Shown here piece by piece: positions 1 through 61,079 of a DNA stretch of 64,000 nucleotides. This DNA is from Ginglymostoma cirratum (Eukaryota), in NCBI GenBank assembly GCA_024137785.1, contig JAHRHZ010000022.1:31972511-32036510 (forward strand), read 5' to 3'. Made by a program: the position numbers and the translations under genes. The number at the start of each line of letters is the position of its first letter. Position 1 is the stretch's first letter. The notes beneath the pieces are model-generated. The model was not told where the DNA came from. It did no database searches and worked only from the letters and a program-made list of their open reading frames with translations.

Positions 1-150
1 CATTTCGGGCCTAGACCCTTCTTCTGAAGAAGGGTCTGGGCCCGAAACGTCAGCCTTCCTGCTCCTCTGATGCTGCTTGGCCTGCTGTGTTCATCCCGCT
101 CTACACCTTGTTATCTCAGATTCTTCAGCATCTACAGTTCCTACTATCTC
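1..150 (+). mobile_element. Penelope-like terminal-repeat (pLTR) fragment in fold-back configuration, cut by window edge
   Basis: Matches the terminal repeat of the GIY-YIG-bearing element at 40964-41690; bases 1-24 are the near-perfect inverse of 26-49. Confidence 0.85.
24..51 (+). ncRNA. Minimal type I hammerhead ribozyme motif (PLE-type)
   Basis: CTGAAGA-A-GGGT(ctgg)GCCC-GAAA-CGTC: core CUGANGA, 4-bp stem II, GAAA, palindromic ACGU stem III, GUC cleavage triplet. Confidence 0.75.
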
Positions 151-761
151 TAGGATAGAAATCTGTTTCTATTGCATCCTGCAGGTCTCCTTGATATTAT
201 TTCCCTCTGTAACTGAGGATCAAGTTTGTAATTAAAGCTTTTCTTGATATGAAGATTTAGGCATGTAATACTTGGCTATTGGCATACTTTGGGCACAATC
301 TAAACTGACAGAAGAGTTTCGTTCCCCTATTATCAATGCTATCAAGATGTCAATGAAATAGATTAAAATATCTTCAGCACCGTTTTGCATACTGGTTTCA
401 GTAAGCTTTCTTTTTCTCTTTGCCACCTTCTGCAGATGATTCTGCTGTTGCTTATTGGCCTTAAATTTTTTTTTCCACATGGTTGGATTGCAGCTCATGC
501 AAAATACTGCAGGGGGACCTGCCCAAAGATGTGTCCTGTTAATCCATGTTAGAATTTTTTCGATACTTTACCAGTATTGCATCAGATGACCTCTGCCGCC
601 ATTCTTGAAGCACACGCCTTTGGCTCAATTTTAGGTGCCTTATTTCAAACGAATGTCCCGGATATTACTACGGTCAATGGAATCAAAAATTAATAAGCAC
701 TCTATTGCAAACTTATGACATTGGAGAAACAAACATCATCTTAGAATTGTAGCACAAAGTT

Positions 762-3829: not shown

Positions 3830-4075
3830 GCTTGTCATTTTCTATAAAAATGGTAAGGGTGTGGAATTTACTACCACAGGTTGAAAAGAATTGCATAGAT
3901 GCAATTAAAGGGGTAAACATGCACGTATGGGGGAGAAGGGAGGGGATGTATATAATGGTAGATTTGGATGAGAAATGATCGGAAGAGGCTCTAGTGGCAC
4001 ATAAATCCCAGAAGGGTTTGGTTGCGCTCAATAGACTGTCCTATGCCATTCATCCTGTGGAGTCCTGTGTAATCC
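3830..4075 (+). mobile_element. CR1/HER1 LINE 3' fragment
   Basis: GGTAAGGGTGTGGAATTTACTACCACAGG (VWN.LP motif region), followed by a CR1-type 3' UTR. Confidence 0.6.
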
Positions 4076-4619
4076 TAATGCATGACAGTCAGGATACTCA
4101 GCATTAGTTTGCCAGTTTGTGCCAGCTCACCCTTATTAAACAGTACCATGTTGTCCCTTTCTTTTAACTAATCTCAAAATTCATTATATCCTTTTGGAGG
4201 TGTACAATGTTCTTCAACTAACATTGGTGGAATTGGTGGAAGTCGCTGTTTTCAATTGTAATTTTCACGTGTGTGATTTACTGATTGCTTTATTAAGGAG
4301 GCAAAATGAACTTTGAGTATGAAAGGTAAGTTATCCATTAAGGTATACCTACTTAATTACTTCTGAAAAGCTTGTCATTGTACACGAATTTGTTAATATA
4401 TCTTGTAAAACCAAAGGATACATAATTATCATGGGGCTCAATGAGTCATTCTTCACAATCTATCTCCAAATGAAGTCCCTCAAAATCACTCCTCTGAATA
4501 AATCAACCACATGTTACATTTCAAAATGAGTTGTATTATATATTATGGAAGAAACATTATGTTCAACTGCACAAGGTTTGCCTTAAAGTAGGAGAGCTTT
4601 GGTAATCCCGTTTCCTGTA

Positions 4620-5200
4620 TTTCCTGCATTTACAATAAGAGCAGCCTGTATTTATATGGCACCTTTTCATAGAAAACATTGTAATAATGTGATTGAACAA
4701 CAGTAGACACTGATGTAAAGCAGTACATGTGATGAAGGGTGTTCCAAAACTAAGTGAAAACTAGATTGTATAGAAATTCTTTAAGAAGAGGGAGATGGAG
4801 CACTTTGGGGAAGACATTTGGAATGTAGATAAATGAGGACACAGCAGTGGGTAGCTGAATGGAGACAGATGCAGAACTAGGTTGGAAAAGAATTTTTAGC
4901 TCATTGGGTAGCTGGTGGAGTTGCATAAATAGGAAGGTGTGAGATCATAAATGGTTTTAAACAGGGGAATGAGAATTATAAATTTGAGATATCTGTGGAC
5001 CAGGAAAGATTATGTCAATGTTAGGAACCAATCAGTGATTGATGAGGGGATTTGGTCCAAGTTAGTGAGGACCAGAAGTTTAGATGTTGAAGGGAGGAGG
5101 ATTAGATGCAGATCAAGAACACGTGAGAATATTTGAGTGTGGAAATGACAATGGCATAAGTGAGAGTTCCAGAGTGATTACTGTTACAGAGGATGTCATC
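4620..5200 (-). mobile_element. Old L2-like LINE fragment
   Basis: Purine-rich + strand typical of antisense L2; tail-like cctgtatttatatggcacctttt. Confidence 0.5.
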
Positions 5201-5779
5201 TGGCAATTTGACTCAGACCATGTAATGTACAACTATTTATAGTTTTCACACATCACTTGCTGCACACTTACTGGCATTTCTGTTTAATAACCAGAATGCT
5301 CTTTCATATAGAAAATTTAATTTATCCTTTAATTTTATGACGCTTTGCAATGTGTTGCGCTCTTCATTGCATAGTTTGATTTCTTCTGCATCTCATGATA
5401 ATAAATCTGGAATTAAAAGTTTGGCTTGGTAATGGTGAGCATGAAATTATTAGTGTTGTGTAGTAGTTATCATATTTGTTTCAGATGTGCAACAACCTTT
5501 GCTCAAAACTAAGCAGAAACAGTTTCGAGGGTCAAATGACACAAATGATAGTTTTTATATCACTGCAACCAGGATTTGTGTGCAAATCTTACTTGCTCCT
5601 GATGTACACCATAACATGTCTGAACAGGTTAATTAAAAGTAGCTAAAAGTTACTTTTGACCACCAGTGAATATTTAGCAGTAACAATCACCATGCTATGT
5701 CATCAAATATATGGTTACAACTCATTTGACAAGGTGGAACTGTTTCAAGGATTTTTTTTGTAGCGAGACAAATGATATT

Positions 5780-6080
5780 AGACTGAAAATTCCTGCCAAT
5801 TCAAAGATCTTCCATTAATTGCAGTCTGGGGAACCTCAGCAGGGCACCATAAGAGAACCATAGAATCAACATCAGCAATGTCGGCATTTCCACATTGTAT
5901 TGCACACATATAGACTCCTGAAGTTGCTGTCAGTTTCAGCAGAGTCATACGATCAAGCTTCAGCTAGCTCAGCTTTTGTGCACACATAATTGCCCTTCTT
6001 TAAGTGTAAAATGCTAGTCTTGGACCCACGATGGTGAATGTTGACAATTTCGCTGTCATTCCCACTGCGGAATCTGGGCC
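5780..6080. mobile_element. Degenerate MITE, probably Harbinger-derived
   Basis: Ends agactgaaaattcc ... ggaatctgggcc resemble the terminal motifs of other Harbinger relics in the window. Confidence 0.35.
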
Positions 6081-8949
6081 AATTTCTCTGATAAGTTGAC
6101 GTACAATTAATTTTATCCGTGACATATTGTTGCACTTGCCATCTCCTTTGCTCTCCTTTCCTATCACAAATGTGTGTTCATTTTTCCATTAGAAATGTTA
6201 CCTGGTTTTATATTCTCCACAGCTAGGTTCATAAATTTTTGACTGCAACGTGTAATGCTAAATGGCTCGGTCATTACGTTAAAGGATCATCATTGAATGT
6301 CCATTATGATTGCTGCAAGCTTCCTGTTGGTGTTTATGAAATTGCATTCTCAGGAAACACACGCTGCCATGATCGTTAGCAGTATTTTGTTACTCTGAAA
6401 AGTAGGCATTCAAAAAAATGTAAAGTGGAAATTCAAATCCTAAGTTTCTTTGCAGTTATGATATGCGTGATTTCTAATTGTCGTCTAATTTTACATGAAG
6501 ATTGAAATTCTTTCGAGAACAGGTTGCTGAGAATGCATTTATTAAATTTGTGGATTGGCATACAGCCACAGTATAAGTACACTTGCTTTATTACCATCCG
6601 TTCTTACTGGCTGAGAGCTATTTAAATGGATTTTCTCACTTCTAATGTATCTCATTATAATTGCCAACATCACCATCTGTCATACACCAACATGTTGGGG
6701 AAACTAACGGTAATGTTTTCATTAATCTTTCTTTTATATCTCCCCTAACTGTTTCTCAGCGCAAGTGCAAAACTACCAATCCTTTGAGTGTGCATTTATT
6801 CTGCAAAAAGGTGTTCTGTCTCTGCAGTCAAAAAAGAAAAGGCAAATCTCAGGAAACAGAGATTTTTATTTAGGAAAATTATACCATTACCTTATTCACT
6901 TCTAACAAATAAATATTATAATTTATAGCTTTGGATCCTTTACACTTGTGCATTAGTACAATCATGAACAAAAAGTCCTTGCTTTTTAGGCAGAGCAGCT
7001 GCTAGCATATGTGAATGCTTGAATCATGGCACTTTTTAATTGACCTTTCTGAGGTATTGGCTTGGTCAAATATCAAGTGAAAAAGTAATGGCTATCCTGG
7101 AATGTACTTTTGATTGCAGATTAGTGCCCAATATCTAATTGGTCAAATTGATAATTGATCCCCCATTTAGAAATTGCTGTGGAAGTTGATGCCCACAATG
7201 ATTGATTGGTAACTTTTCAGACACAGAGACGTAAAGCACAGTTCTTGATTTGAAATGAAAGAGAAAGTTCTCAAATATTTTAAATGCACCCAATAGGTTG
7301 ATTGCTGTTCAACTTTTCTCTAATAAAATGCTTTTAATTTGAGTTTGTAGTATATTTTATGAATTGAGTTCTTTCAGAAATTCACTTTGGCTGCTTGCAT
7401 GCACAGGCTGATTTTCTGCAGACTAAGTTGCTATTCCATGTGAAGTGTCAGTAGTCATTCAAAAGATCTGACACAAAAACCACACTCACAAAACCTGTAT
7501 GGTTGAGTAAAGATATTTTTAAACAATGATGAATTGTTTGTGTGTCCTATTGTCATTTTTCAGATTAATCTCTAATTCATTATTGGAGCTTTCAATCATC
7601 TTTTATTGTCCTTCACGTGCCTACTTTGTTCTGTTGTTGTAGACTTATCTTTACACATCCTCTTTTGATGGAGAAGGAGAAGGACACAAGCTCAATTCTG
7701 CTTGAGTTGTCAAGATTGCCCATGCTTAACTGGCATTGTCATTGCAGGTTGAGGTAGTTTAGTGGTGAAATAATTCCAAATTTCTGTGCATTTTAATTAA
7801 TTTGCTGGTTCATTTATTTTGATCTAGATCATTATTTAAACCAGTACCTGTCCAGATTGATCCTGCCCCTTTCTGAGAATCACTTCATGTTTTTCTCCAC
7901 CACGTCACTGAGTGGACTCATGACACAAGAATAAATGAACAGTGTAAACTCTTAGGCAAGAGGTATAAAAGTCTAACCAAAGTTAGTGACATGTAACGTC
8001 ATTATACGGTGCATGAATAAATCATAAATGTTGAAAATCATGATGATAAATGTTTCACATCCCCTCTGGAAACATAAATCTGTCCTCATCGCATCACTCT
8101 TTTAAAGAACAATTATTGTAACCATGCCAGGTACAGGACTGTGAAGTTCCATCACATGTGACTGGCTTTCACACAAGAGGACTGCTCAATCACTTGTGTA
8201 TTTATCACAGCTTAAGTTGTCTCTAACTGCAGACTTGTTGATAAAATTGGATTCAAAGACATAATGAAGCTTCTTCAACAGAATATCACTGGAAGTGCAA
8301 TTAATTTGAAAACGAATTTTGTGCTTGCCTTTAGAGAACCTTGAAGTTTCATTTTATAAAATCTTCTCCATTTAAGGGCACCACTATCGTACATCCTGAT
8401 CACCTTCCACCTGATCACATTGCTCACAATTGCCCCTTCCTAGTTGCACCTCTTAGAATGACACTGCCATGCATTTCAATCATCACCCCATCCCAATTTT
8501 CTTTCACCCTGGCAGGTCTCCTTTAAGACGTGAATGAGGGATACATCCAGTCACACCAATAATGTAATATTCAATGTTCCGTCTTCAGTCAGTGTTGATT
8601 TGCTGTCTACAAATTGCTGAATATTTGCCTCAAGCCCACTTCTTCAGGTTCAGAAGTCGTTCTTCCCGCTTTTGATCATGAGTAAACTTCCGGCACGCTC
8701 ATTGTGTACTTACGAGGTGGTTTTGAGAGTAAAGGCAATTTCCATTTTAACCTGCACAAAATATTATTCAGGTTTCCAGACATAATGATAATGATAAAAT
8801 AAAAATAAAAAAGCTTACAATGTGCGGCAAACAAAAATAATAGCCCTAAGTTTACTTAGGATCAATATCAACAATTGACATATTATTGGAATGGGGAGGA
8901 AGGCAGGACACTGATTAGCTGAGAAAGGTTTGTCCTGCTTTTTGTATAA

Positions 8950-10140
8950 AGAGCATATCTGAACAATTTTCCACATTGCCAGGTAGAGGCCACTACACTT
9001 GGCTCGGGATGCAGCCGGTTCTGGTGTACAAGTCAACCATTTCTTGATACCACGGAGTGAATAGAATTGACTGAAAGCTGGCATTTGTGATTCTGGAGAC
9101 CACCAAAGAAGGCTAAGACAGGCCATCTACTCAGCATTTCTGCCAAAGATTGTTGCTTCAAATTTGTCTTTTTCACTGAAGTGTTAGTCTCCACCGTCAT
9201 TGAGAGTAGGGTATTCCTACAGTGAATTGTTTAATTGTCTATCACTCTCCACATCTGGATGTGGTGGGAACTGCAGAGCTTAGATCTGATCCCTTGATTA
9301 TGCATTCACTCAACACTATTAATCTCTTGCTGACTATGGTGTTTGGTAAGTAAGCCACTCTGTGTTGTTGCTTCACCAAGTTGGAACTAAAATAACTCCA
9401 TGGAAGTCATTATCCCATCACCAAATCACCCTTTAGTTACATGTGGAGAGTCCTTGATACTGATCCAGCTCCCTCAGAGCCAGCTTTCAGTGTGAACAGA
9501 ACCTCCGACACTCCTGTTTTTATCTGTCAGACAGGGCTCTCTGATCGGACCAAATTAACAGCCCCAATCAGGGAGCTCATATTCTATGTGGGCCACCTGA
9601 CTGACCTCATCACAATTACTACAGCAACCTGATTTTTAAGTATGCTAGGTGCTGCTCTTGGTCTGCATTTCTGTGATCTTCATTGAACTGGGGTTGATCC
9701 TCTGGCTTGATGGCGATAATGGAGTGGGGAGTGGGATGTAGTGGTCCATGAAGTTGTAGATTGTGTTTGAGTCCAATTCTGTTGCTGATGATGGCCCACA
9801 TCACCTCACTGATGCCCAGTCTTGAACTGATAGACCTTTTCAAAGTTTATGCCATTGAGAACAGTGATAGTAACAAACAATGCAGTGGAGGGTATCCTCA
9901 ATGTGAAGATGGGACATTGCCTCCCCCAGGATTGTGCAGTGGTCCCTCTTACTGATACTGTCATGGACAGTTGCATCTGTGGCAGGCAGACTGCTGAGGA
10001 TGGGGTGAAGTATATTTTCCACACTTACTAGTCCTTGCAGATTTGGGAATCATGTGAAATTGGCATGAACTTTGCAGGGTTGACAGGGCTATGTTGCCAT
10101 TGTCATTTCTGGTGCTTAAGTCGATGCCTAGCTCATCTGG
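8950..10140 (-). mobile_element. CR1-group non-LTR LINE fragment interrupted by a solo LTR
   Basis: 9100-9380 is the reverse complement of sequence at 55870-56130 (same LINE family); continues after 9623. Confidence 0.7.
9385..9623. mobile_element. Solo LTR-like insertion (~240 bp)
   Basis: Discrete block splitting the LINE (…caccaagttgg | gcaacctgattttt…), ends in …ACTACA as expected for a TG…CA LTR. Confidence 0.5.
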
Positions 10141-10149
10141 TATCATTGC

Positions 10150-10472
10150 TTTTTTGTAACGTTTTAGCAGTTTGGTACATCTGAATAGCTTGCTAGACCA
10201 TTTCAGAGGGTAGTTAGGAGTCAACCACATTTCTGGAAGTGACACCAGGTAAGGATGGCAGTTTCCTTTCCTTAAAGGGCAATCATCAACTGATGGGTTT
10301 TAATGGCAATTCACAGTGATTTCATGGCCATTGTTGAACTTTTAATTCCAATTTTACTTAAAGTTCAAACTCTTCTATCTGCTGTAGTGGGATCCACACA
10401 CAGGCCCCCACAAAATTGCCTGGAATTCTTGATTATTAGTCCAGTGGCAAAGCCCGAAACCATTGCCTCCCC
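10150..10472 (-). mobile_element. tRNA-derived SINE, same family as 762-1105
   Basis: gagtcaaccacat, ggtaaggatggcagtttcctt and cattgcctcccc are reverse complements of the 762-1105 copy. Confidence 0.8.
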
Positions 10473-14966: not shown

Positions 14967-15707
14967 TAAAACAGGAACAAAAACCGCTGGAGAAACTCAG
15001 CAGTTTTGGCAGCATCTGTGGAGAAAAAGTAGAGTTAATGTTTTGAGTGCATGAACCTTCTTTGGAACTGACAGTAGCTCGGAAAAGATGGCATAAATGC
15101 TAAAGACAGGGGTGGGATGGGGGTGGTATAGTGATGGAAAAAGTGAGTGTATAGGCAGAGATAAAGTCCAGAGAGAGAGAATCATATTTAGGCAGGGAAA
15201 GGGATGGATGATAGTCTGCCAGAGAGAAAGAAAAGCTAGGGACCGTTAGTTGGATGTTCTGGAAGTAGCCAAATGTGATGATAGGGGCTGGGGTGTGGGT
15301 ATGGGACATGGAAGGGAGTGTTCAGGTCCTACAATTATTGAACTCAATATTGAGTCCTGAATGCTGCAGGATCCCTAAGCAGAAAATGAGGTGCTGATCT
15401 TCCAGCTTGTGCTGAGCTTTGCTGGAACACTGCTGCAAGTCCAAGACCGAGCTGTTGGCCAGGGAACAGGGTGGTGTGCTGAAATAGCAGGCAACTGGAT
15501 GTTTAGGGTCATTTTTACAGACAGAACATTGGTGTTTCACAAAGTGGTTGTACACTCTGAGTTTCATCTCCCCAGTATAGAGGAGACCACATTATGCAGT
15601 AGACTAGATTGACTGAAAGCACTACTTCACTTGCAAGGTGTGTCTGGAGCCTTGGTTAGTGAAGAGGGAGGAGGAAAACAGATAGGAGTTGCACCTTCTG
15701 CAATTGC
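14967..15707 (-). mobile_element. Penelope-like element 3' part: GIY-YIG endonuclease remnant plus pLTR with decayed hammerhead
   Basis: Minus translation NLVYCI…LLYTGE…HPVACYF…LIFCLGILQHSGLNIEF is a PLE GIY-YIG domain; decayed hammerhead core near 15030-15070. Confidence 0.85.
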
Positions 15708-18726: not shown

Positions 18727-19997
18727 TGGGCAAAATTTTATGGGATACAGTGAGATTTGTGGCAGAATTGTAGAAGAAGTCCAATAAGGCCAACCCCAAC
18801 ATTGGGAGCATCTTGCACTTTTTTTTCATGCTTTGGCCAAGTGGCAAGATGAGTTGCCAATAATGGGGAATTATTAGTTGTTAAATGCCTTGTTAATGAC
18901 CAACTTGCCTCATTAATATTCAGCTTGCTATTTTACCAAATGTGCCAAACAAGCTAGACATCGAGAAATCGCAACATGGAGATCAGAGCGATTCCTGGTG
19001 ACATTGATTCTCCTACAGCTCTAAATGACCTCCATGTTGCTCAGTGAGCATTAACATCTGAGAGTTTGCTCCTTGGGCACCATCCATGCACGCTTTGTCC
19101 ATGGAATTGGCACTGAAAATGTGCCAGTCTCTAAGATCCGTTTTGGCATGTTTCTGATCCATTTACCGCACAATTCACCACCTTCTAATTTGGCTCTTTC
19201 TTCTCTGTTGGAGGCTGTTGCCTTCTGGAGTAAGAGAGAGGTGGGTATTAAGGGAGGTAAAAGTGTGTGGCACAGCTGTTACTTTTGGTGCAGGTTGGGA
19301 GGTGTCTAGAGTGAGTGAGTAGGCAGCGCAGAGGGTAGGCAGAGTTAGTAGTGTTGGGGTTGAGTTGGTAAGAGTGAGTGAGGAAAGATGTTGCAGGTGA
19401 TAGTGAGAGCATGAGCCTTGGTGGAAGGTTGTTGTAGAAGCAGAAAATGAATGAGTGTGATGTATCAGATTGTAAATGTCACTATCTTCACTGATTGAGT
19501 GGAAAACAATGATGTTCTTTTTTCCAACATTGCTGGCATTCTTCCAGATGGCTGAGATGGCTCTAACCTAAGTGAAAAACCTCAGACAAGGCTGACATGG
19601 TCTGGTGCTGTGGCTTCCACTGTTGGGGAAAAGAATGTTCCACCTGTGGACCACTCTGTCCACCAGTATCCTACCCACAAAACAAGGTACTAATTTCCCC
19701 CTGCAATGCCATGCACATTTCTATGTCTGGAACTATTCAAGGCAGCTCCCAACTCTCAGTGTTGTCCTGGAGCACCTTGGGCATTTAAAAATGGTATTAG
19801 AGCAATGGACGTTGCTTAATTCTAGGATATTCAGGCAGCAATGTGTTGTTCTGGGAATGTGTGGTAAGATAGGTCAGATCATATGTAAGGGACATCATAG
19901 GATGTGTGATGGGTAGTTAATGAGGCAAGTAAGGTACAGCAAGAAAACTTATGAGGCCTTCCGGTGTAACTTGCACTCCACCAAAAATTTCATACCA
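18727..19997 (-). mobile_element. Decayed non-autonomous PIF/Harbinger element with Myb/SANT ORF relic
   Basis: 19360-19800 parallels 24540-24970 (Myb/SANT relic); ends gggcaaaattt / aaaatttcatacc are weak TIR-like motifs. Confidence 0.5.
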
Positions 19998-20823: not shown

Positions 20824-20954
20824 GAGATAGCAAGAACTGCAGATGCTGGAGTCAGAGATAACAAAGTGTTGAGCATCAGAGGAACACAGCAGGCCAGTCC
20901 TGTTCCTCTGAGGCTGCCTGTCCTGCTGTGTTCCTCCAGCTCTACACTTTGTTA
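20824..20954. mobile_element. Fold-back PLE pLTR mini-insertion
   Basis: Minus arm 20824-20897, plus arm 20898-20954; flanked by ttcagaacttt (20811) and ttcagagcttt (20955), a probable TSD. Confidence 0.8.
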
Positions 20955-21589
20955 TTCAGAGCTTTCTGTCTTCTAGGTAATTGGTCCCATGTGCAGCGGG
21001 CAGTTTATCAGGGAATCAGGGGTCTGTTGCCTGTGTTCAGATATCTTAATAGGAGGAAAATTGCAGGCAAAGCATCAGATTTTCTAATAAAACTCCAACT
21101 ATGTGAGAACCCTGTGGAACACTCAAACAGTACTTCCAACACAACAAACAAAATGCCAGTACAATTCTGCCATTTGTCATATAATATTAGAAACAATGGC
21201 AAGAAGGTTCAGCTGCTTAGACCTGATGTCCAGGCCTTGGCTTGAGCTAGAAATTTGACAAACGTCTTAAATGCTGATAAACTCAATTTATGTCTATCTG
21301 TCAAGAGACGGTTGGTACCATGGAAAATCACCTTGATCTGTGGAACATTAATACCCAAAACTCTTCTTCAAATGACACAACCACTTGATTACAAGGTAGA
21401 AAAAAACAGTGTCCCAAACACTGATGACAAACTCCTTGGAAGAGAGCTACATTATGGGACTTTGAAACCTCATCATATGAACTGAAAGCCGGAGAATATT
21501 CTTATAACTTGTTTTAGCTGACAACTGACCAAAAGAATACATTATACAATGGCATTTTGAGGAAGGGGTATCTAAAATCAAAGTTTATT

Positions 21590-23899: not shown

Positions 23900-25170
23900 G
23901 TCTAGCCTTGCTCTGCCTTGCCTTTTAGAACTTTTTCCCCTCAGCCAGAGCTAATAATCCTACACTTCTTCTGTCTTGATATGCCTTTTACTGTAGCCAC
24001 AAAGCCAGGAAACTTGTCACAGTTGTAGCAGTCATTAGTCAAGGGGTTGGACATGTTGCTGTGTGACACTGTGCTGAGTCAACTCTTGGATCGTGTGCCA
24101 GCTGTGTATGTGGCAAACGTGTATGAAGCAAACATGCTTCAAGCAAAAAGCCATATTTTAAAGTCTCACAGGAGTAGTCCTCGCTCAAGTCAAGGGAGAC
24201 GCCATTCTGTCAGGGGTTCTGGTACAGTACATCAAGGGCAGTTTCTGATATCAGTCCAGTGGTTAGGGTATGGTCAGTTAGCCACTCAGGGCAGTCAAGG
24301 ACAGGATCCTCGACTCTTGGAGGGTGAAGAGCTCAATGTTGAACACCCCACTTCCAGTCTTGTCACTTTCTGCCCTGTTTTGGGTTATTTTATCCTGGAA
24401 TGAAAGAAAAGGAGGGCTGGTGTGTGAGGAAAGTGGTGGCAAAGTTGTTAATGCTGGCACAGGTGTGATAAAGGTGGCGAAGTGTCTGCACTGAGTGAGT
24501 GAGAGACCTTACAGGGTTAGTGTTGTGTGGGGATTGGGTGGGTAAAAGTGAGTGAGGAAAGATGTTGCATGCAATGGCGAGAGTGGTAGAGTATGAGCCT
24601 TGATGGGAGATGGGTGCAGTAGTAGAGTGCAGAAAGAAGGTGGTAGCATTCATTGCGGTGGGTCATTGATCTTCTTCCTACAATACTGGAGGATCCTTCC
24701 AGATGGCTAAGACTGCATTGATCTGGATGGCAGCCTCATTCTAGGTTGGTAGGATCGAGTGTAGTAGCCTACTGTGCTGATCTTGTGGGGACAAGAAGTC
24801 ATGCCTCTGCACCACCCTATCCAGACAGAACTTGAGGTCCCTGCCTGCAAAGGAGGGCATGAATTTCCCCTTCTCTGCCATGTGCAGGCCAATTGTCACA
24901 AACTGTGCAGGGCAGCTCCAGATAGCCACTGCTTGACCAGGTGCACAATGGGCTTTTAAAGATGGTGCTTGCAACAAGGAGATGCAATACCCTGGTGGTA
25001 GTGGTGGTGAGTACGTGCACTTGTAGTGAGTGAGAGAATCGGGCTCGGATTGGATGAGAGAGGAACCATAGGGTTAATGTGGTGGGTTTAGGACAATAAT
25101 GCAAGAAAACCCAATAAGTCTTGTAGAGTGAAACACTCCGTGAAATTTGACAAAAATTACACTTTACCAA
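23900..25170 (-). mobile_element. Decayed PIF/Harbinger element, Myb/SANT ORF relic
   Basis: MAEKGKFMPSFAGRDLKFCLDRVVQRHDFLSPQD resembles the N-terminus of Harbinger Myb/SANT proteins. Confidence 0.55.
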
Positions 25171-34211: not shown

Positions 34212-34410
34212 GAATCAATAGAATCATTGAATCCCTTACAGAATCATAAAATCCCTACAGTGTGGAAACAGGCCATTCAACCCAACAAGTCCAAACTGCC
34301 CCTTCGAAGGCCATCCCACCCGGACTCACTCCCCAACCCCTACATTTCCACATGTCGATTCCTTATAGAATCATAGAATCCCTACAGTGTGGAAACAGGA
34401 CATTTGGCCC
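34212..34410 (-). mobile_element. Two tandem HE1/HER1 3' tails
   Basis: atagaatccctacagtgtggaaacaggcc-type tail twice, the reverse of the 60720-60757 tail. Confidence 0.8.
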
Positions 34411-35753
34411 AGGAATACAAAAACTATATAGAATTATGTTTACAAGATTAATATAATTTGAGATTCTGTTAGGATAAATGGAAGGAGACTACATGACATT
34501 TTCTGCCTGACAGTAGTAAAACATGGGTGGTTTGATTGTTAGAGATCAAAGGAAAGCTGAGATTGATTTACATGGAAGGATAAGGAAGTTATTTATGCAT
34601 GGAGGCAATGAGAACAATCTCTGATTTTTAGATGGTCAGGGTTTTTCAGATCAAGTTACAGTCTTCCCTGCAAATCAGTGAATCACAGACAGACAACAGG
34701 TTCTGTGCAGTCAGCTAAAGGAAGATGTTCCATGTCCTGTGAGTTTACCACAACCAAATCCAGGTCTCGCCAGTGTCCCCTACATTTGATGAACAAATTA
34801 AAAATAAAAGAGGCAGACAGTGTCTAGTTAAAGAAATGCACACTGCTGCCTTCCTTGGAACTTGAAAGACATTTCCTGGCATTGCTAAGGATAAAAGGAA
34901 TAATGAGAACAGGCTTTACTGATGGGGGTGGACTTAAATTTTTCTCTGAAAACTGAAGAACATGCCAATGAAATGAGAATGCAAAATCCATTGAAAACCG
35001 AGACCAACTGTGGACTACTTGCTAAAAGGATTGTAATTCAATGGCAAATGCTATGTGCTAAGCATGACAGGGAACAATTCCTTTCTTCAGGTTAAATGTA
35101 GGTTGCCTAAAGAAAACAGTGTTCACTCAATAAGAGTTTTTTTCAGTCAGTTGTTATAGTAAAAGTTTTTAAGACATAAAATCTGGTTGTGTAACTCTTT
35201 CAGGGAGTAACTGGAAGGTTGATTTCTTTTTAAAAGTTACTGATCTCAACAGAGATTGTCATAGGATTTGAGAGGTGGAAATGACCATCCAGATGCAAAC
35301 TGCTCCATATTATCCTGCAAGAGAGTAGAGAGTAAATCCGGAAAAGGCAAGCGGTTAAAGAAAGTATATCAAGTAGCTTGGGAGAGCTAAAATAAAAGAA
35401 GTAGCATTATCTAACTAATCCAAGTGGAGGGAAGAGTTTTAGAGTTGCGCATGAAAATAATTTCTGTTACAGTAGCTACTAAGCAATAGTGGCATGCAAC
35501 ATTTTAGTGCCTTCTTAACTAGAGTGCATTATGAAGATTTGCTGTACAGATGTCATATTAAAAGAGTGAAGAGTATGCTAACATCCAGGTTGACCTTCAT
35601 TAATTAACATAGCCAATACCAGATTAAGTGCATTTATATTCATTTGCCGTTTCTGAAAACATGCAGTGCAAATTTGGCTGCTACCTGTACATAGTCACTT
35701 TATTTCAGAAAAATGTAACTCATAGGTTGAGAAGCTGTTTGGACCATCCTAAT

Positions 35754-40963: not shown

Positions 40964-41688
40964 AGAGATAGTAGGAACTGCAGATGCTGGAGAATCTGAG
41001 ATAACAAGGTGCAGAGCTGGATGAACACAGCAGGCCAAGCAGCATCAGAGGAGCAGGAAAGCTGAAGTTTCGGGCCGAGACCCTCCTTCAGAAATGGGGG
41101 AGGGGAAGGGGGTTCTGAAATAAATAGGGAGAGAGGAGGAGGTGGATAGAAGATAGATAGAGGAGAAGATAGATGGAGAGGAGACAGACCAGTCAAAGTG
41201 GCGGGGATGGAGCCAGTAAAGGTGAGTGTAGATGGGGAGGTAGGGAGGAGATCGGTCAGTCCAGGGAGGACGGACAGGTCAAATGGGCGGGATGAGGTTA
41301 GGAGGTAGGAGATGGGGGTCGGGCTTGACGTGGGAGGAGGGGATGGGTGGGAGGAAGGACAGATTAGGGAGGCAGGGATGAGCTGGGCAGGTTTTGGGAT
41401 GCGGTAGGGGGAGGGAAGATTTTGAAGCTTGTGAAGTCCACATTGATACCATTGGGCGGCAGGGTTCCCAAGCAAAATATGAGTTGCCGTTCCTGCAACC
41501 TTCGGGTAGCATTGTCGTGGCACTGCAGGAGGCCCAGGATGGACATGTTGTCTGTGGAATGGGAGGGGGAGTTGAAATGATTCGCGACTGGGAGGTGCAG
41601 TTGTTTCGTGTGAACCGAGCGGAGGTGTTCCTGCTCCTCTGATGCTGCTTGGCCTGCTGTCTTCATCCAGCTCTGCACCTTGTTATCT
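40964..41688 (-). mobile_element. Relatively young 5'-truncated Penelope-like element with inverted 5' pLTR
   Basis: EHLRSV…PVANHFNSPSH…LIFCLGTLPPNGIN (GIY-YIG C-terminus); pLTR 40964-41095 (-) and inverted pLTR 41628-41688 (+); TSD ctgagtttt at 40951 and 41687. Confidence 0.92.
41064..41091 (-). ncRNA. Hammerhead motif with core substitutions
   Basis: Minus strand CTGAAGG-A-GGGT(ctcg)GCCC-GAAA-CTTC; A9>G and stem III G>T. Confidence 0.55.
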
Positions 41689-48747: not shown

Positions 48748-49029
48748 TTTTTTTCTCATTAAGTATTCAGGGCTGGCTAGGCCAGCATTTATTGCCCATC
48801 TCTAATTGCCCAGTAATAAGTCAACCACATTGCTGTGGGTCTGGAGTCTCAGGTAGGCCAGACCACGTAAGGGTGGCAGTTTCCTCCCCGAAAGGACATT
48901 AGTGAACCAGATGGGTTTTTCTGACAATTGGCAATTAATTCATGGTCATCATTAGGCTCTTAATTCCAGATATTTATTGAATTCAAATTCTACCATCTGC
49001 CATTACCGGAATTTGAATTCAATAAATAT
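48748..49029 (-). mobile_element. tRNA SINE (762 family), 5'-truncated, nested in CR1
   Basis: Antisense of the 850-1080 body and tail. Confidence 0.85.
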
Positions 49030-49518
49030 GTGGCTCAAACAATGCTATAGAAGAAATAGGTTTCAATTCATGGGCACCAGTAGATGTTCGGGAAGGGAAA
49101 GAGTGTCCTGTACAACTGTGACAGTCTTCACCTGAACTGTGACGAACAGGTAGCCTTGAAAACACTATAGTTTGTTGCAAAGAATTCTAAATGAAGTAGT
49201 GGGAGAAAGGATACATGATAGAGGAGATTAGGAAAGTTATAGTGAAAGTATAAGTCAACAGTGCAAGGTAATGATAAAAGCAATGGGAGCAAGAGCTTGA
49301 CAAGATTGGACAAAGTGTACTCACGTAAGGTGCACTAGCAAATAAGGTTTGAGATGAGAAACATGGTAAAGGAACAAAATTAAAGGCTCTTTATCCAAAT
49401 GCAGACATTTATAAGATTGATGAATTGATAACAAAAACAGAAATAAATAAGTATGTCATATTAGGAATTTTGGAGATGTGGTTACAAATTGACCATGACA
49501 GGGACGTGAATAATCAAG

Positions 49519-50084
49519 CAGCATCTGTGGAGGAGAAAACAGCGTTAACGCTTCGGGTCCGGTGNNNNNNNNNNNNNNNNNNNNNNNNNNNNNNNNNNNN
49601 NNNNNNNNNNNNNNNNNNNNNNNNNNNNNNNNNNNNNNNNNNNNNNNNNNNNNNNNNNNNNNNNNNNNNNNNNNNNNNNNNNNNNNNNNNNNNNNNNNNN
49701 NNNNNNNNNNNNNNNNNNNNNNNNNNNNNNNNNNNNNNNNNNNNNNNNNNNNNNNNNNNNNNNNNNNNNNNNNNNNNNNNNNNNNNNNNNNNNNNNNNNN
49801 NNNNNNNNNNNNNNNNNNNNNNNNNNNNNNNNNNNNNNNNNNNNNNNNNNNNNNNNNNNNNNNNNNNNNNNNNNNNNNNNNNNNNNNNNNNNNNNNNNNN
49901 NNNNNNNNNNNNNNNNNNNNNNNNNNNNNNNNNNNNNNNNNNNNNNNNNNNNNNNNNNNNNNNNCACCGGACCCGAAGCGTTAACGCTGTTTTCTCCTCC
50001 ACAGATGCTGCCAGACCTGCTGAGCTTTTCCAGCAACTTTGTTTTTGTTCCTGATTTACAGCACCCGCAGCTCTTTTGGTTTTT
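49519..50084. mobile_element. Fold-back PLE pLTR insertion spanning the assembly gap
   Basis: 49519-49564 is the exact reverse complement of 49965-50010; 15-bp TSD acgtgaataatcaag (49504) / acatgaataatcgag (50085). Confidence 0.85.
49565..49964. other. Assembly gap (400 N)
   Basis: Run of N. Confidence 1.
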
Positions 50085-50899
50085 ACATGAATAATCGAGG
50101 TATTTTGGCATTTCAGAAGAACAGGAAGAAATAGTAAGGATGCGAGGCAGCTCTATTTACAAAGGATAACAAAAGTGCAGTGAGAAACTACTTTAAGGGT
50201 TTGAAGGATCAAACTATAAAAACAGCTTTGGTAAATATGAGAAATAACAAAGGAAAACTGTCACCAATGGAACCAACTTATAGGGCTCTGAAAACAGCTA
50301 CATTGTAGAACAGAATATAAATCAAGAAAAAATGGGGGCTTACAAGGAAAGTTTTAAAATAATTGTGAGAGATTTTATTCTTCATGTAGATGGACAAATT
50401 AAATTGCCAAAAGTAGCCTAGAAGATGAAATCATATTGTATTCTAGACAATTCTTTATTAAGAACAGTACATTCTGTAATGTACCAAGGAGCAGGCTGTT
50501 TTAGATCCGCTAATGTGCAGTGGGACATTATTAACTGATGACCTCATAGTAACACATCTTCGAGACAAGACTGATCTGAATATGACAGAATTTTATTTTC
50601 TTTTTGACTGTGAGAAATCATTGTCTGAAACTGGTGTCTTAAATTTAAATAAAGGTAATTGCAAGTGTGTGAAGATAGAGTTAACTAAAGTAAATTGAGG
50701 AAATAGATTAAAAAATAATATGGTGGAGAACCAGCAACAGATATTAAAGAAACAATTTCATAATGCTGTACCAAGTTATATTGCATGGAGAAAGAAGATT
50801 CTTCGAGAAGGATGTATCAACCTTGTGGCTAACTAAGGAAGTTAAAGATGTCATCAGTTTGGAAGAAAGGCTATATAATCCTGTAAAAAATAGTGATGG

Positions 50900-50992
50900 C
50901 TGAAGAAGGGTCCAGACCCAAAACGTCGGCTTTCCTGCTCCTCTGATGCTGCTTGACTTGCTGAGTTCATCCAACTCCACACCTTGTTATCT
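50900..50992 (+). mobile_element. 93-bp PLE pLTR mini-insertion starting at the hammerhead core
   Basis: CTGAAGAAGGGTCCAGACCCAAAACGTC (G12>A); TSD gtgatgg (50893) / gtgatag (50993); interrupts CR1. Confidence 0.8.
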
Positions 50993-53229: not shown

Positions 53230-53960
53230 TGATGCTCACTTAACCCTTCCCTCTCCAAGGTTTGTGCCATTGTCCATTTGCTTTAAAGCTGTTTTAAACC
53301 AGAGGCTATTAATTAGTGTAATAGGGTCCTTGTAAACAATTGCGCTATTTTCAACTTTCCTTTACTCTCCAAAGACCTTGAGTGTGCTGTTGCTTGCTAA
53401 ATCTTTACCCATCCTTCAAAGAACTGTGTGTTTGACTCCCTTCAATCAGGCTTACACACCTGTCACAGTTTTGAAACGAATGTCGTCAAAGTCACAAATA
53501 ACATCCTATGTGACTGAACAAGGTAAACTATCTCTCGTCTTCGTACTTGACCTTTCTTCAGCTTTTGAAATAGTTACCATGCTACTGTCCTCATACATCT
53601 TTCCTTTGTTTCCATTTAGATGGACTACATGTGTCTTCTTTCATGCTCTTCTATCCACTCATAGCCAGAGAAACACCTGCAAAAGCTTCTCTTTTGGTCT
53701 TGCACCATTATCTTTGGTGTCCAGTTCCATCTGTCATCTGCCCCTCAAAGACATCACAGGAAAACACAATTTCTACATGTATGCTGATGATACCCAACTC
53801 TACATCACCACCAATTCCTTCAACCTCTCTAATACATCTTCTACCACATCCAAAACTGGATTAATATTAATATTCTTCAATTAAATATTGGGAAGATGGA
53901 AGCCATTGTCTTTAGTCCATGTGACAAATTCTATTCCGAGCTCACAACTCTCTCCCTTTC
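53230..53960 (+). mobile_element. L2 LINE RT fragment
   Basis: LVFVLDLSSAFE and FYMYADDTQLY motifs. Confidence 0.85.
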
Positions 53961-54158
53961 AGCATCTGTGATGAGAGAAATAAAGTTAATATTTCAAGTC
54001 TAGTATTATTCTTCTTTAGAATAGGACAGAAGGGTCATACCAGACTGGAAACATTAACTCCATTTATCTCTCTACAGATGCTGCCAGACCTGCTGAGTTT
54101 CTCCAGCATTCTCTGTGTTTGTTTCAGATTTCCAGTATCTGCTGTATTTTGCCTTTAT
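53960..54158. mobile_element. Older fold-back PLE pLTR insertion with decayed hammerhead
   Basis: Minus arm 53960-54020 and plus arm 54025-54158 (…gaagggtcataccagactggaaacattaac…cagatgctgccagacc). Confidence 0.7.
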
Positions 54159-56485: not shown

Positions 56486-57011
56486 AAAGTAATAACCTTG
56501 TCAATGGCCCAACTCACCTTTAATTCTTTTTCATTATTATTTTTAAATTTCCAGCAGTAATTAAAAGTAGAAGGAATAGACATTACTTTGTGAAAGTTAA
56601 TCTTCAGTACCAGAGAGGTTATTAAGAAGTTGTTATTTGCTTGAAGGGCACTTAAATAGGAATGGACAAATGGAATTTTTGTGGCACATTTAGTCAGGAT
56701 CCATGAAGTAAAGTATAAGGACTTAACACTGTTCAGGTCATTTGAATATTGAGCCAATGAATTTTCATCCCACTTTTGAAGGAACAGGTCGTCAGATGCA
56801 GAATATATCAGCTATTTTCATTTAGTTGTGCACATGCTGTCGCTAAAGCTTGCTTTCTAACTTGCACAGTGAGTGACATTAGCCTCAGTTTGTTTCTTTT
56901 ACAAGAAATCCAGCCTAAAATCTCAGTTAATGGAGGTAACTGCCCACCAAAATACTGTAACCTGTGAAGGTAACACAAAGTAGAATTTGGGCTTGCTCTC
57001 AATTTACAAAG

Positions 57012-57144
57012 CATTTCTGATGAAGGGTCTAGGCCCGAAACGTCAAGTTTTCCTGCTCCTATGACGCTGCTTGGCCTGCTGTGTTCATCCAGCTCCTCAC
57101 CTTGTTATCTCGGATTCTCCAGCATCTGCAGTACCCATTATCTC
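57012..57144 (+). mobile_element. 133-bp PLE pLTR mini-insertion with intact hammerhead
   Basis: Same family as 1-150 and 40964-41095; imperfect TSD aatttacaaag (57001) / attttacagag (57148). Confidence 0.85.
57017..57044 (+). ncRNA. Minimal type I hammerhead ribozyme, canonical core
   Basis: CTGATGA-A-GGGT(ctag)GCCC-GAAA-CGTC; predicted cleavage after C57044. Confidence 0.8.
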
Positions 57145-58859
57145 AGAATTTTACAGAGATGGATTTACTTATACTTAAGTGCTGGTTTATTCCTCTTATT
57201 TATCCTAGACTTGTTCTAAAGTTCAAATGGAATGAAATTTAGTCAACCAGCAGAATGCAGTCCCCACCTTTACCTAACAGACCCCAGAAGCGTACAATTC
57301 AATATTTAAGGTGGATTACAGAACAAAGAGTGGTATAGAAATGGAAAATTAAGTCTGACAAATTAAACTTTTGACAGCTTTGAATTACAGCTTAGCCATG
57401 TATATTTTATATTTTTGACTTCTGGCAACTAGCCTTCTGATAGTCTAGCTGAGCATAAGCAGAACTGCTATTACTCTGAGACATGCACCCAGAGACTGCT
57501 AAATTGATGGGTGAATTAGTGGTATATGGTCCTTCTACTGCACAAACACTTGCAAAGATATTGACGAAATTCCTGTTAAGATTTTACAGAAGCACAACAG
57601 GTTTGGAGTGGAAGATGTAAGTGAATGACATATTTACATCATGAGATGAACAAAATAAACTCTTTTCTGCCTGTTTACAAATCTTTACCATAGAGTAATC
57701 CCATTATAATGATTTTTAAAGTGCTAATTTGTCTCCCTGATTGTAAAAGAAAAAATGTTTTAAAAATATTTTGAATGACAGCAGCCAGGTAAAAATTGTG
57801 TCTTGGAAGCCCTTACATTTAATGCCATTGTAACACTATCTAATTTCAGGACAAAAAAGTTAGAGTTATTCAATTGAAGAAAAATCTTACTTTCTTACAT
57901 AATTGTCTTTTTTTAATCTGTAGGAATTCCCTTCAGGATAATTATAGGTTACTGTAGAATTATTTGCACCAAAAATAGCATTCTAAATTCTCAGGCCTGT
58001 GGAACAAGGGACAAGATTGTTTACTGCTTGTCTATTCAGAAAGATCACAGCCTTATACAATAAATTTTCCATGAAAAATATATTTAAAAATGATTTCTAA
58101 ATCAGTACAGCCAGTACTTGTCTTGAGGAATATGATGATGTTAACCTTATTAAATCCAGCCCATTGAACTACACTGTATCATCAGCTGAGGTTTTGACCT
58201 TTTGAGAGATGACTTTCTTCGCTGGGCCTTTCATATATTCTTTCTGCTATGAAATGAAATGCCGAAACAAAAGAGGAACAAACTTGCATTCATGTAGCAA
58301 ACTTCATAACATCAGGACATCCTAGAGTTTTTCAGTAGTTTTGAAGAGAGTTCTGGTTGTGTAGTTGCAAATTTAAATTTTTTTTTAAAAAATTGCCAAT
58401 TCCATTTATCACTCTGAATCTAACCTGATATTCCAAACAAATGTTTACTGGACAACACTGGATGCGAACATAGCAGATAATTCAATCAAAGTCTCTGCAA
58501 GATAATTGCTAAACAAGAAGAAAGTTTAGTCTTTTTATTAACTTCTAGATAGATCCATTAGTTAATTGATGCTGAGTTAAATGGACTGAATTTTCCCATT
58601 TTCAATTAAAATGCATTGGCAAGTGAGTTGCATAGTGTTTGGTCTGCCGTGATCGAAGGCAGATTCTCCTATTAATTATGCAATTGAGCTGTTGAGCATG
58701 TTTCTTGGGGAATCACATGGCCAGGGAAATGGATGTGTATGCTACCGGTGAGATCTACTGGCTTACAAGACTCTGGTGTATATTTAAAACCAAGTTATAA
58801 ACTGTAGGCTATGAGCTAATTTTCAAACAGCAGTGATCAGCCCCCGAAGATATTTCAGA

Positions 58860-60433: not shown

Positions 60434-60757
60434 GGGGCAGCACGGTGGCTCAGTGGTTAGCACTGCTGCCTCACAGCACCAGGCACCCGGGTTTGATTCC
60501 AGCCCCGGGCGACTGTCTGTGTGGAGTTTGCACATTCTCCCTGTGTCTGCGTGGGTTTCCTCCGGGTGCTCCGGTTTCTTCCCACAGTCCAGATATGTGC
60601 AGGGTAGGTGGATTGGCCATGCTAAATTGCCCATAGGTGGGTTAGACATGGGAATTGCAGGGTTAGGGGAATGGGTCTGAGTGGGATGCTGTTCGGAGGG
60701 GAGGTGTGGACCTGTTGGGCCAAATGGCCTGTTTCCACCCTGTAGAGATTCTATGAT
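60434..60757 (+). mobile_element. HE1 SINE (V-SINE), full length
   Basis: tRNA head GGTGGCTCAGTGGTTAGCACTG…, V domain gtggagtttgcacattctcc…gggtttcctccgggtgctccggtttc, HER1 tail ctgtagagattctatgatt. Confidence 0.95.
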
Positions 60758-61079
60758 TTTATTCTCAAGTACATCATAAGGTACTGGGCATCCAGTCAGA
60801 TATAGAATAAGGAATGAGCAGTAAATTATTCCACTGGCATAGGGAATGGAAATGTAGCTTGTATATCATTAGCAGACAAGGCTTTTTGCTGAGTTTTTTT
60901 TTAAGGAAAAGGGATTTTTCACAGTGCTCTAACTGAGGGTATATTCTCTACACTTTAGAGGTTTTTAAAATTAAATTGGGATGGTTGGCAGTTTGAACTA
61001 CCTTTGATTGGACCTTCAGCCAGGATGATAATGATAAGCGCCCATCCAAACAACAGCCTGCCCTTGACAGATTCATGAC

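Follow-up and report, generated by a model that had tools for sequence, protein, structure and literature searches.

Hammerhead motifs in the terminal repeats (pLTRs) of Penelope-like elements (PLEs), dispersed single motifs, and the truncation, tails and inverted partners of PLE copies have all been published. The copying mode of PLEs and the purpose of the hammerhead are still open questions. The minimal hammerhead was inactive in vitro as a monomer and little active as a dimer (PMC4209133), and one of nine frog hammerhead dimers cleaved (bioRxiv 10.64898/2026.07.22.740005). For the hammerhead of an anole PLE, cleavage required protein, and insertion in vitro did not depend on the ribozyme (PMC11167929). 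That the PLE tail is found on one end only has been described qualitatively (PMC3846280, PMC8557442), and the tail has been equated with two internal start sites of reverse transcription (PMC11167929). Thousands of exact copies of one such motif in the genome of Ginglymostoma cirratum provide a natural footprint bearing on both questions. They are analysed here from a 64-kb stretch of DNA, referred to as the window, and from copies elsewhere in the genome.

A solo terminal repeat with an intact hammerhead core

Numbering throughout takes the C of CTGATGA as +1, which is window position 57017. The forward strand at 57017..57044 reads CTGATGA-A-GGGT-CTAG-GCCC-GAAA-CG-TC, and both the sequence and a structural descriptor agree with an earlier note that this is an intact minimal type I hammerhead core. 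Its parts are CUGAUGA, an extra A, stem II GGGU/GCCC (57025-28/57033-36), GAAA, a palindromic CG and a GUC triplet, and a cut is predicted after C57044. The 5' strand of stem I, AUUU (57013..57016, forward strand), pairs with AAGU at 57045-57048, giving 4 bp of which one is U-G. A stem I of 4-5 bp is characteristic of metazoan PLE minimal hammerheads. In other copies stem I has 4 Watson-Crick bp (family B) or 3 or 2 bp (other family A subfamilies). The A of this AUUU is probably the transcription start of the parent element. The locus conforms to the metazoan PLE minimal hammerhead, CUGANGA..GAAA..UH with stem II, and carries the extra nucleotide between 9 and 10.1, the G10.1-C11.1 pair and the palindromic 15.2/16.2 positions. 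Families A and B have A, G-C and CG at these places, and a third family has T, G-C and CG.

With a relaxed minimal-hammerhead descriptor, two intact cores and no others were found in the window, at 24 and 57017, and the nearest intact same-strand core in the window lies 57 kb from 57017. An Rfam scan of the window returned no match to a hammerhead family at E<=5. The minimum-energy fold is not a hammerhead (z -0.75 for 44 nt, -0.89 for 133 nt and +1.18 for the copy at 19-62) and omits stem I, but these scores are uninformative because the ribozyme would be dimer- or protein-dependent.

The core lies in a solo pLTR of PLE family A at 57012..57144 (forward strand), which runs from -4 to the long 3' end at +128 and is 96% identical to the 5' repeat of a complete unit (L064, below). 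An optional PLE tail of 33 bp (57112..57144, forward strand) separates the short (+95) from the long (+128) 3' end; both ends finish in TTATCTC. The unit has its own target-site duplication (TSD), as had been claimed for several of the loci, in an imperfect form: the left copy is at 57001..57011 (forward strand) and the right copy at 57147-57158, with one mismatch and one indel.

Other copies in the window

The earlier note had counted about seven core-bearing loci. These are present, but intact cores occur at two only, and a coreless pair was overlooked. The second intact core (24-51) belongs to a family A copy with a long end at 22..151 (forward strand), which has an inverted arm at 1-28 and N to its left. 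It had been described as identical in form; it is intact by the descriptor, but reads CTGAAGA (N7=A), not CTGATGA, and its stem I has just 2 bp. The mutated core at 41064-41091 had been taken for a 90-150 bp non-coding unit. It actually terminates a 667-bp family A copy, truncated at its 5' end (40964..41630, reverse strand), that contains the ORF end, the 3' UTR, the core and a long end. The inverted short arm of this insertion lies at 41628..41688 (forward strand). The solo family A copy at 50900..50992 (forward strand) spans +1..+94 to a short end and has G12 mutated to A. The overlooked locus, 20824..20955, is an old head-to-head family A pair with a long arm of +56..+128 and a short arm of +35..+92.

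The second, GUU-type family (family B) is present in the window, as reported. Its stretches at 49540-49564 and 49965-49990 belong to one head-to-head pair (49518..50085) whose two parts, 49518-49564 and 49965-50085, lie around a 400-N gap, with a 9-bp duplication, TGAATAATC, outside. Self-comparison of the window also identified a decayed family B-like head-to-head pair at 53960..54145 and a decayed family B-like copy at 14967..15086 (reverse strand).

The host introns that the earlier note had named as the setting of these units are conjectural. No host Pfam family was matched by the 90 longest of the 231 window frames; they gave one reverse transcriptase (RT) fragment only, from another retroelement, at 53336-53881 (forward strand; RVT_1, E=2.8e-6). 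Other dispersed repeats seen by self-comparison of the window are at 850-1075, 48772-49003, 34231-34411, 60645-60762, 10244-10382, 19340-19444 and 24512-24626.

The parent Penelope-like element

The short repeats are the terminal repeat of a PLE of about 3.5 kb that encodes RT and a GIY-YIG endonuclease (EN). The 30 best genomic matches have a common 3' end and reach upstream by 1 nt to >1.4 kb. Longer copies encode GIY-YIG upstream (E=2.4e-6, above the Pfam cut-off). The RVT_1 match ahead of it is weak and below the Pfam cut-off, and the DKG and YIDD motifs were read directly. A 749-aa frame holds DKG, YIDD and a CX4CX2C linker, which in copy L046 reads CNRRKCYIC and fits CX2-5CxxC between RT and EN. 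Copy L064 is a whole unit, arranged core-ORF-3'UTR-core with cores at 2088 and 4842; it measures 2,754 bp and has an internal deletion of about 750 bp, so the full element is about 3.5 kb. The first fitting ATG is at about +170, past the tail.

A single ORF with RT (from the weak match and the motifs) followed by a C-terminal GIY-YIG is the arrangement of an EN+ PLE, and the optional 30-40 bp tail, inverted 5'-truncated partner and short TSD are also EN+ PLE traits. The identity proposed earlier, a minimal hammerhead in a PLE terminal repeat, is thus borne out by the layout of L064 and by RT plus GIY-YIG. Cys linkers of this type are a feature of Neptune and Nematis (PMC8557442), and the vertebrate PLEs reported in the available text of bioRxiv 10.64898/2026.07.22.740005 are Neptune and Poseidon only. 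Judged from sequence, the clade is most likely Neptune, with a linker that also fits Nematis. A PDB sequence search with the ORF gave no relevant match.

Copy number and ends

Exact matches to the 28-nt core number 34,689 in the 4.36-Gb genome (reversed control, 0), and this genome-wide motif search agrees with the very high copy number claimed before. Ends were examined in a sample of 27 blocks of 50 kb, taken at a fixed offset from 27 contigs, which came to 814 kb after 10 all-N blocks were dropped. The sample yielded 110 family A segments at 80% identity or more, of which 29 adjoining N gaps were excluded from the 5'-end count. The descriptor found 64 intact cores in the 814 kb, compared with 0-2 in each of 10 shuffles. 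Extrapolation gives about 590,000 family A segments genome-wide, which is probably an overestimate by up to two-fold. The sample also contains a third hammerhead-bearing family (the L172-L176 block and others; 5 matches in 814 kb) with stem I UGCA/UGCG, an extra U after A9 and a longer stem II (GUUA...UAAC).

The 3' ends of the 110 segments fall at +91..+101 (50) and +126..+128 (53), with 7 elsewhere, on a reference that ended at +128. The 5' ends are spread over a truncation series that reaches about -2,000 and has a single spike. Stops at -5..-1 account for 25 of the 48 copies at risk (0.104 per nt), compared with 2 of 23 at -30..-6 (0.0035 per nt), a drop of about 30-fold upstream of -5. 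There is a shoulder at 0..+19 (19/67), and one copy in 68 starts at the predicted cut (+27..+31). Among exact-core copies genome-wide, 32,080 continue with CCC, 5,360 have a foreign base at -4 (G 2,686, A 1,887, T 787) and 3,813 have one at -5. A or G replaces the element's base in 4,573 copies at -4 against 292 at -9, where the query core was three bases shorter, and inspection of two sets of 30 loci showed true stops, not point mutants, in 29 and 26. The ratio of stubs, as we call the copies that stop here, to long copies is 7:8 in the sample and 9,173:32,080 genome-wide; the sample is richer in stubs, and with this mismatch the stub share is uncertain, at roughly a quarter to a half of copies reaching the core edge. 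The length and TSD statistics uphold a discrete class of short copies, as opposed to smooth truncation, of ~100 and ~133 bp with its own TSDs.

Family B, in a set that takes in flanks of loci fetched for family A, behaves alike. Of its copies at risk, 26/41 end within -4..-1, where the stop falls on the A of TCAGTT; TATAAA lies 29 nt upstream of that A. The 3' ends of this family are also bimodal (37 at +91..+104 and 36 at +123..+135, n=90). In family A the stop is the A of CCCATTT, and TATTTATT starts 31 nt upstream. The two families have diverged upstream, yet their stops keep one position with respect to an initiator-like A and a TATA-like box, which resemble an initiator and a TATA element at their usual spacing. 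A TATA/Inr pair is present in a rotifer pLTR (PMC3846280).

Two artefacts were considered and rejected as causes of the stop. Splicing does not fit: family B has AG before the stop, but the acceptor-like AG of family A is ~20 nt further upstream and has no stop cluster. A mismatched reference does not fit either, as the DNA upstream of these stops is unique, inverted-arm or template-jump sequence and contains no second 3' UTR. Several longer family B copies (L032 1547-1754, blocks L092-L096 and L082-L086) end 122-127 nt upstream of the core against the reference, which is probably the reference copy's own truncation point.

The base at the stop junction

Genome-wide, 50% of copies have G immediately ahead of the stop (26% expected among non-C). 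A junction G is found in 10/15 sampled copies stopping at -4/-3, compared with 11/45 at other truncation points, in 6/9 family B copies starting at -3, and as the last extra base in 5/5 solo -3 copies with a clear TSD and extra bases (L215, L216, L217, L225 and L227). An extra G is a mark of capped full-length L1 insertions (PMC11702581). The excess of G is moderate: the proportion G/(G+A) is 59% at -4, against 51% at the -9 control (51 G, 49 A, counted by hand in the first 100 matches listed) and 42% by composition. For some to many of the junction Gs, the inverted arm or the TSD could have served as template, and T is the usual base ahead of a stop at -2 (7/10 in the -5/-2/-1 group). Given the control level, the templated Gs and the T at -2, the junction G does no more than suggest that the stop at -3 marks the capped 5' end of the parent RNA.

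At L205, L230, L243, L245 and L251, pieces of the PLE ORF are joined straight onto the -4/-3 stop, often via G, and the joints 2495->2083 and 2361->2083 in the RNA reads are similar. This suggests template jumping after run-off, possibly a route to partial tandems.

Head-to-head pairs

One long and one short end are joined in 34 of 36 head-to-head pair rows (p=2e-8, with three arms used twice). TSDs of at least 7 bp flank 21/36 pair rows, against 10/1,260 control pairings, and 15/39 solo copies, against 21/1,482 controls. The arms of a pair span the same stretch and are mostly of one subfamily, and either may extend further 5': a long-ended arm to -1,601 is paired with a short-ended arm to -1,998, and a long-ended arm to -293 with a short-ended arm to +16. 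Since single-arm snap-back cannot yield both cases, we infer two priming events. Inverted pairs would set the hammerhead motif against its own antisense.

Gaps of 400 N (49565-49964 in the window, L031, L032 and many other loci) are very often at the centres of head-to-head PLE pairs, and 12/36 pair rows contain N. These palindromes therefore seem to account for many of the assembly's gaps.

Stubs and long copies compared

Lineages were compared among 203 copies from all fetched DNA, with loci partly selected. The 85 stubs and 86 long copies are spread over all three subfamilies (33/13, 34/68 and 18/5), and their divergence is similar in each (0.009/0.014, 0.033/0.039 and 0.054/0.054). The oldest subfamily (18 vs 5) is skewed to short copies, in loci that were not randomly drawn. 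Long and short 3' ends are split alike (44 long and 41 short, vs 45 and 41). No stub-diagnostic base was found in any of the three subfamilies; the best of about 94 columns gave p=0.008 uncorrected and lies inside the stub-selection pattern. A lineage apart from the autonomous partner, as a SINE would have, is not seen in this comparison of 85 with 86 copies, which has limited power. Tandem arrays of the short unit are likewise missing among the 110 sampled segments and in the window, where the tandem hammerhead units of a non-LTR retrozyme would be looked for, apart from one loose same-strand neighbour pair (B97). With common subfamilies, similar divergence, no diagnostic base and no tandem arrays, the SINE- or retrozyme-like mobility that the earlier note had envisaged for the unit is not supported. 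Among the genome-wide matches, G000:C20:57081284-57081558 holds three same-strand core-bearing matches in 300 bp, a possible short tandem array and a candidate for dimer cleavage in cis.

Excess conservation of the core, also anticipated, is absent. Non-CpG core positions depart from the column majority in 15/793 cases, against 118/5,050 outside the core (p=0.52), and as the core is mutated no less than its surroundings, the copies decay neutrally. Sampled cores are intact in 32/61 and broken in 29/61, with the CpGs at G12 and in the CG palindrome frequent losses. Across the three families, stem I is AUUU/AAGU, AGUU/AACU or UGCA/UGCG and stem II is GGGU/GCCC, GGGU/ACCC or GUUA/UAAC. The stems covary and the core is kept between families, which indicates selection on the motif in active parents, not visibly in stubs.

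Self-cleavage of solo copies is, on their sequence, unlikely. The 29 broken cores, stem I of 2-4 bp and the published in vitro results make it unlikely that active cleavage sites are scattered through the genome. Two raw RNA runs, whose species may differ from that of the genome, were mapped to one parent copy. The two mate directions gave equal depth, each about 18,000 on the repeat and 110-510 on the ORF, and 92% of the mapped reads continue into other sequence, with host read-through dominating. The polyA run had no start or end peak over the repeat, and a library of this kind is not expected to show one. The reads reflect passive presence of the repeat in transcripts, not cleavage or a start site. 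Back-joints in the RNA reads could stem from rearranged genomic copies.

Origin of the stubs

We favour, at a probability of roughly 60%, a run-off origin, in which the stubs are cDNAs that began by internal priming close to the capped 5' end of parent PLE RNA left uncleaved. The parent would be transcribed from the A at -3, with a TATA-like box supplied by the 3' UTR of a copy upstream, so that the mRNA would open with the hammerhead. The priming sites at +95 and +128 would then occur twice in the RNA, close to its 5' end and again past the ORF. Use of the downstream pair would produce ordinary 5'-truncated long copies, and priming at the upstream pair, 100-130 nt from the RNA 5' end, would run off and leave stubs fixed at ~100 and ~133 bp. 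If both nicked target strands prime, one per site, long-plus-short inverted pairs within one TSD would result. Stubs made by run-off at the front end of the RNA are likely by-products of the parent, not a mobile element of their own. Having neither the upstream TATA-like box nor sequence 3' of the priming sites, most of them would likely be dead on arrival, and as lone minimal hammerheads they would likely not cleave themselves. That RNA 3' of the priming site is required is assumed by analogy with a Poseidon-clade element. Against dead-on-arrival stubs, the Penelope promoter of D. virilis is internal and TATA-less (PMC2377424), so stubs could be transcribed.

That promoter also favours a different origin, in which the stubs are an independent, non-autonomous SINE- or retrozyme-like element with an internal promoter, re-mobilised in trans by PLE protein. 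The discrete lengths with their own TSDs (15/39 solos) and the very high copy number would suit such an element, rotifer pLTRs suffice for mobilisation in trans (PMC3846280), and retrozymes are related to pLTRs (bioRxiv 10.64898/2026.07.22.740005). We nevertheless consider it quite improbable. Stubs and long copies use the same two 3' ends, the core shows no excess conservation, short-unit tandem arrays are missing from the 110 segments, and the three subfamilies lack a stub-specific base and have divergence like that of long copies, although a young stub lineage without new mutations would look alike. The stop could instead be a hot spot of RT stalling or cDNA snap-back, joined by microhomology (TTTCTGA/TCAGAAA, at the start of a C-rich tract), and the stubs a biased form of ordinary truncation from the downstream sites. 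Many stops are indeed at palindrome centres or have snap-back-like inserts, such as CAG before ATTT, a shoulder of stops lies at 0..+19, and self-priming has been proposed for PLE palindromes (PMC3846280). We hold this unlikely, since two families with differing upstream sequences stop at the same place relative to the initiator-like A and TATA-like box, the stop is shared by solo copies that have a clean TSD and lack an inverted arm, and the stop rate falls about 30-fold upstream of -5.

A cleaved or circular template, the cycle proposed in PMC4209133, would give the hammerhead a direct part, and the covariation of stems I and II around a kept core in three PLE families speaks for it. Copies should then start at +29, and the single such start among 68 largely refutes this origin, which we regard as very improbable. 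A circle, moreover, has no end to account for the stop at -3, the polyA run shows no RNA end peak at the site, and hammerhead mutants left insertion unchanged in vitro (PMC11167929).

Under the favoured run-off origin the hammerhead would stand at the capped tip of the mRNA, and there it might be a pairing signal more than a cutter: its self-complementary ACGU would join two RNAs for a dimeric RT-endonuclease, with the short site used on one strand and the long site on the other. We put this forward as a distinctly doubtful idea. Were it true, the long-plus-short pairs over the same stretch and the fixed-length stubs would be a genomic record of a two-template step.

Comparison with known systems

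The copies mark the likely start of the parent RNA and argue for uncleaved RNA as the in vivo template, as opposed to RNA that is circular or cut by the ribozyme, and the inverted insertions point to near-obligate use of both priming sites. For the in vitro model of 2024 this gives sharp predictions, namely a start at -3 and run-off cDNAs of 100 and 133 nt. Counts of 'genomic hammerheads' in such genomes would mostly be counts of likely inert stubs.

The motif is like the PLE minimal hammerheads of Cervera and De la Pena (2014, PMC4209133) in being type I, with an extra nucleotide after A9, G10.1-C11.1, a palindromic CG, no stem III and a short stem I. Those motifs too are mostly single and dispersed, and were tied by their authors to truncated PLEs. 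The stems here are short by comparison (stem II 4-5 bp, stem I 2-4 bp), and the 34,689 exact cores of one family exceed the about 4,000-9,000 motifs of the richest vertebrates in that survey. A fixed 5' stop at the motif edge is present here and is not mentioned in the results and discussion of PMC4209133. We found no description of such a stop, or of a run-off class, in the literature; subscription papers, Repbase entries and supplements may contain one.

EN+ PLEs (Arkhipova 2013, PMC3846280; Craig 2021, PMC8557442) share with the parent element RT plus C-terminal GIY-YIG, the Neptune/Nematis Cys linker, heavy 5' truncation, head-to-head inverted copies, a 30-40 bp tail on one end, TSDs of 8-10 bp, solo pLTRs and TATA/Inr-like motifs. 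The solo pLTRs here have TSDs and one sharp 5' end, whereas those of rotifers lack TSDs and were put down to recombination or deletion (PMC3846280). The tail asymmetry is near-obligate here (34/36 rows), unlike in the available descriptions of EN+ PLEs (PMC3846280, PMC8557442).

The Poseidon element PAc of Anolis carolinensis (Frangieh 2024, PMC11167929) is similar in that two internal RT start sites bracket its tail and both DNA strands are nicked and extended. Its substrate is uncleaved RNA and its hammerhead needs protein, which we count as a further likeness. PAc belongs to another clade, and its ORF starts inside the hammerhead, whereas here the first fitting ATG is ~170 nt in; the main text of PMC11167929 mentions no run-off product of the 5' repeat. 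Non-LTR retrozymes (bioRxiv 10.64898/2026.07.22.740005) resemble the stubs in their type I hammerhead, lack of coding sequence, relation to pLTRs and occurrence as dispersed monomers. Their defining trait is a tandem array in which every repeat carries a hammerhead, whereas the stubs described here are solo or head-to-head and have their subfamilies in common with coding copies.
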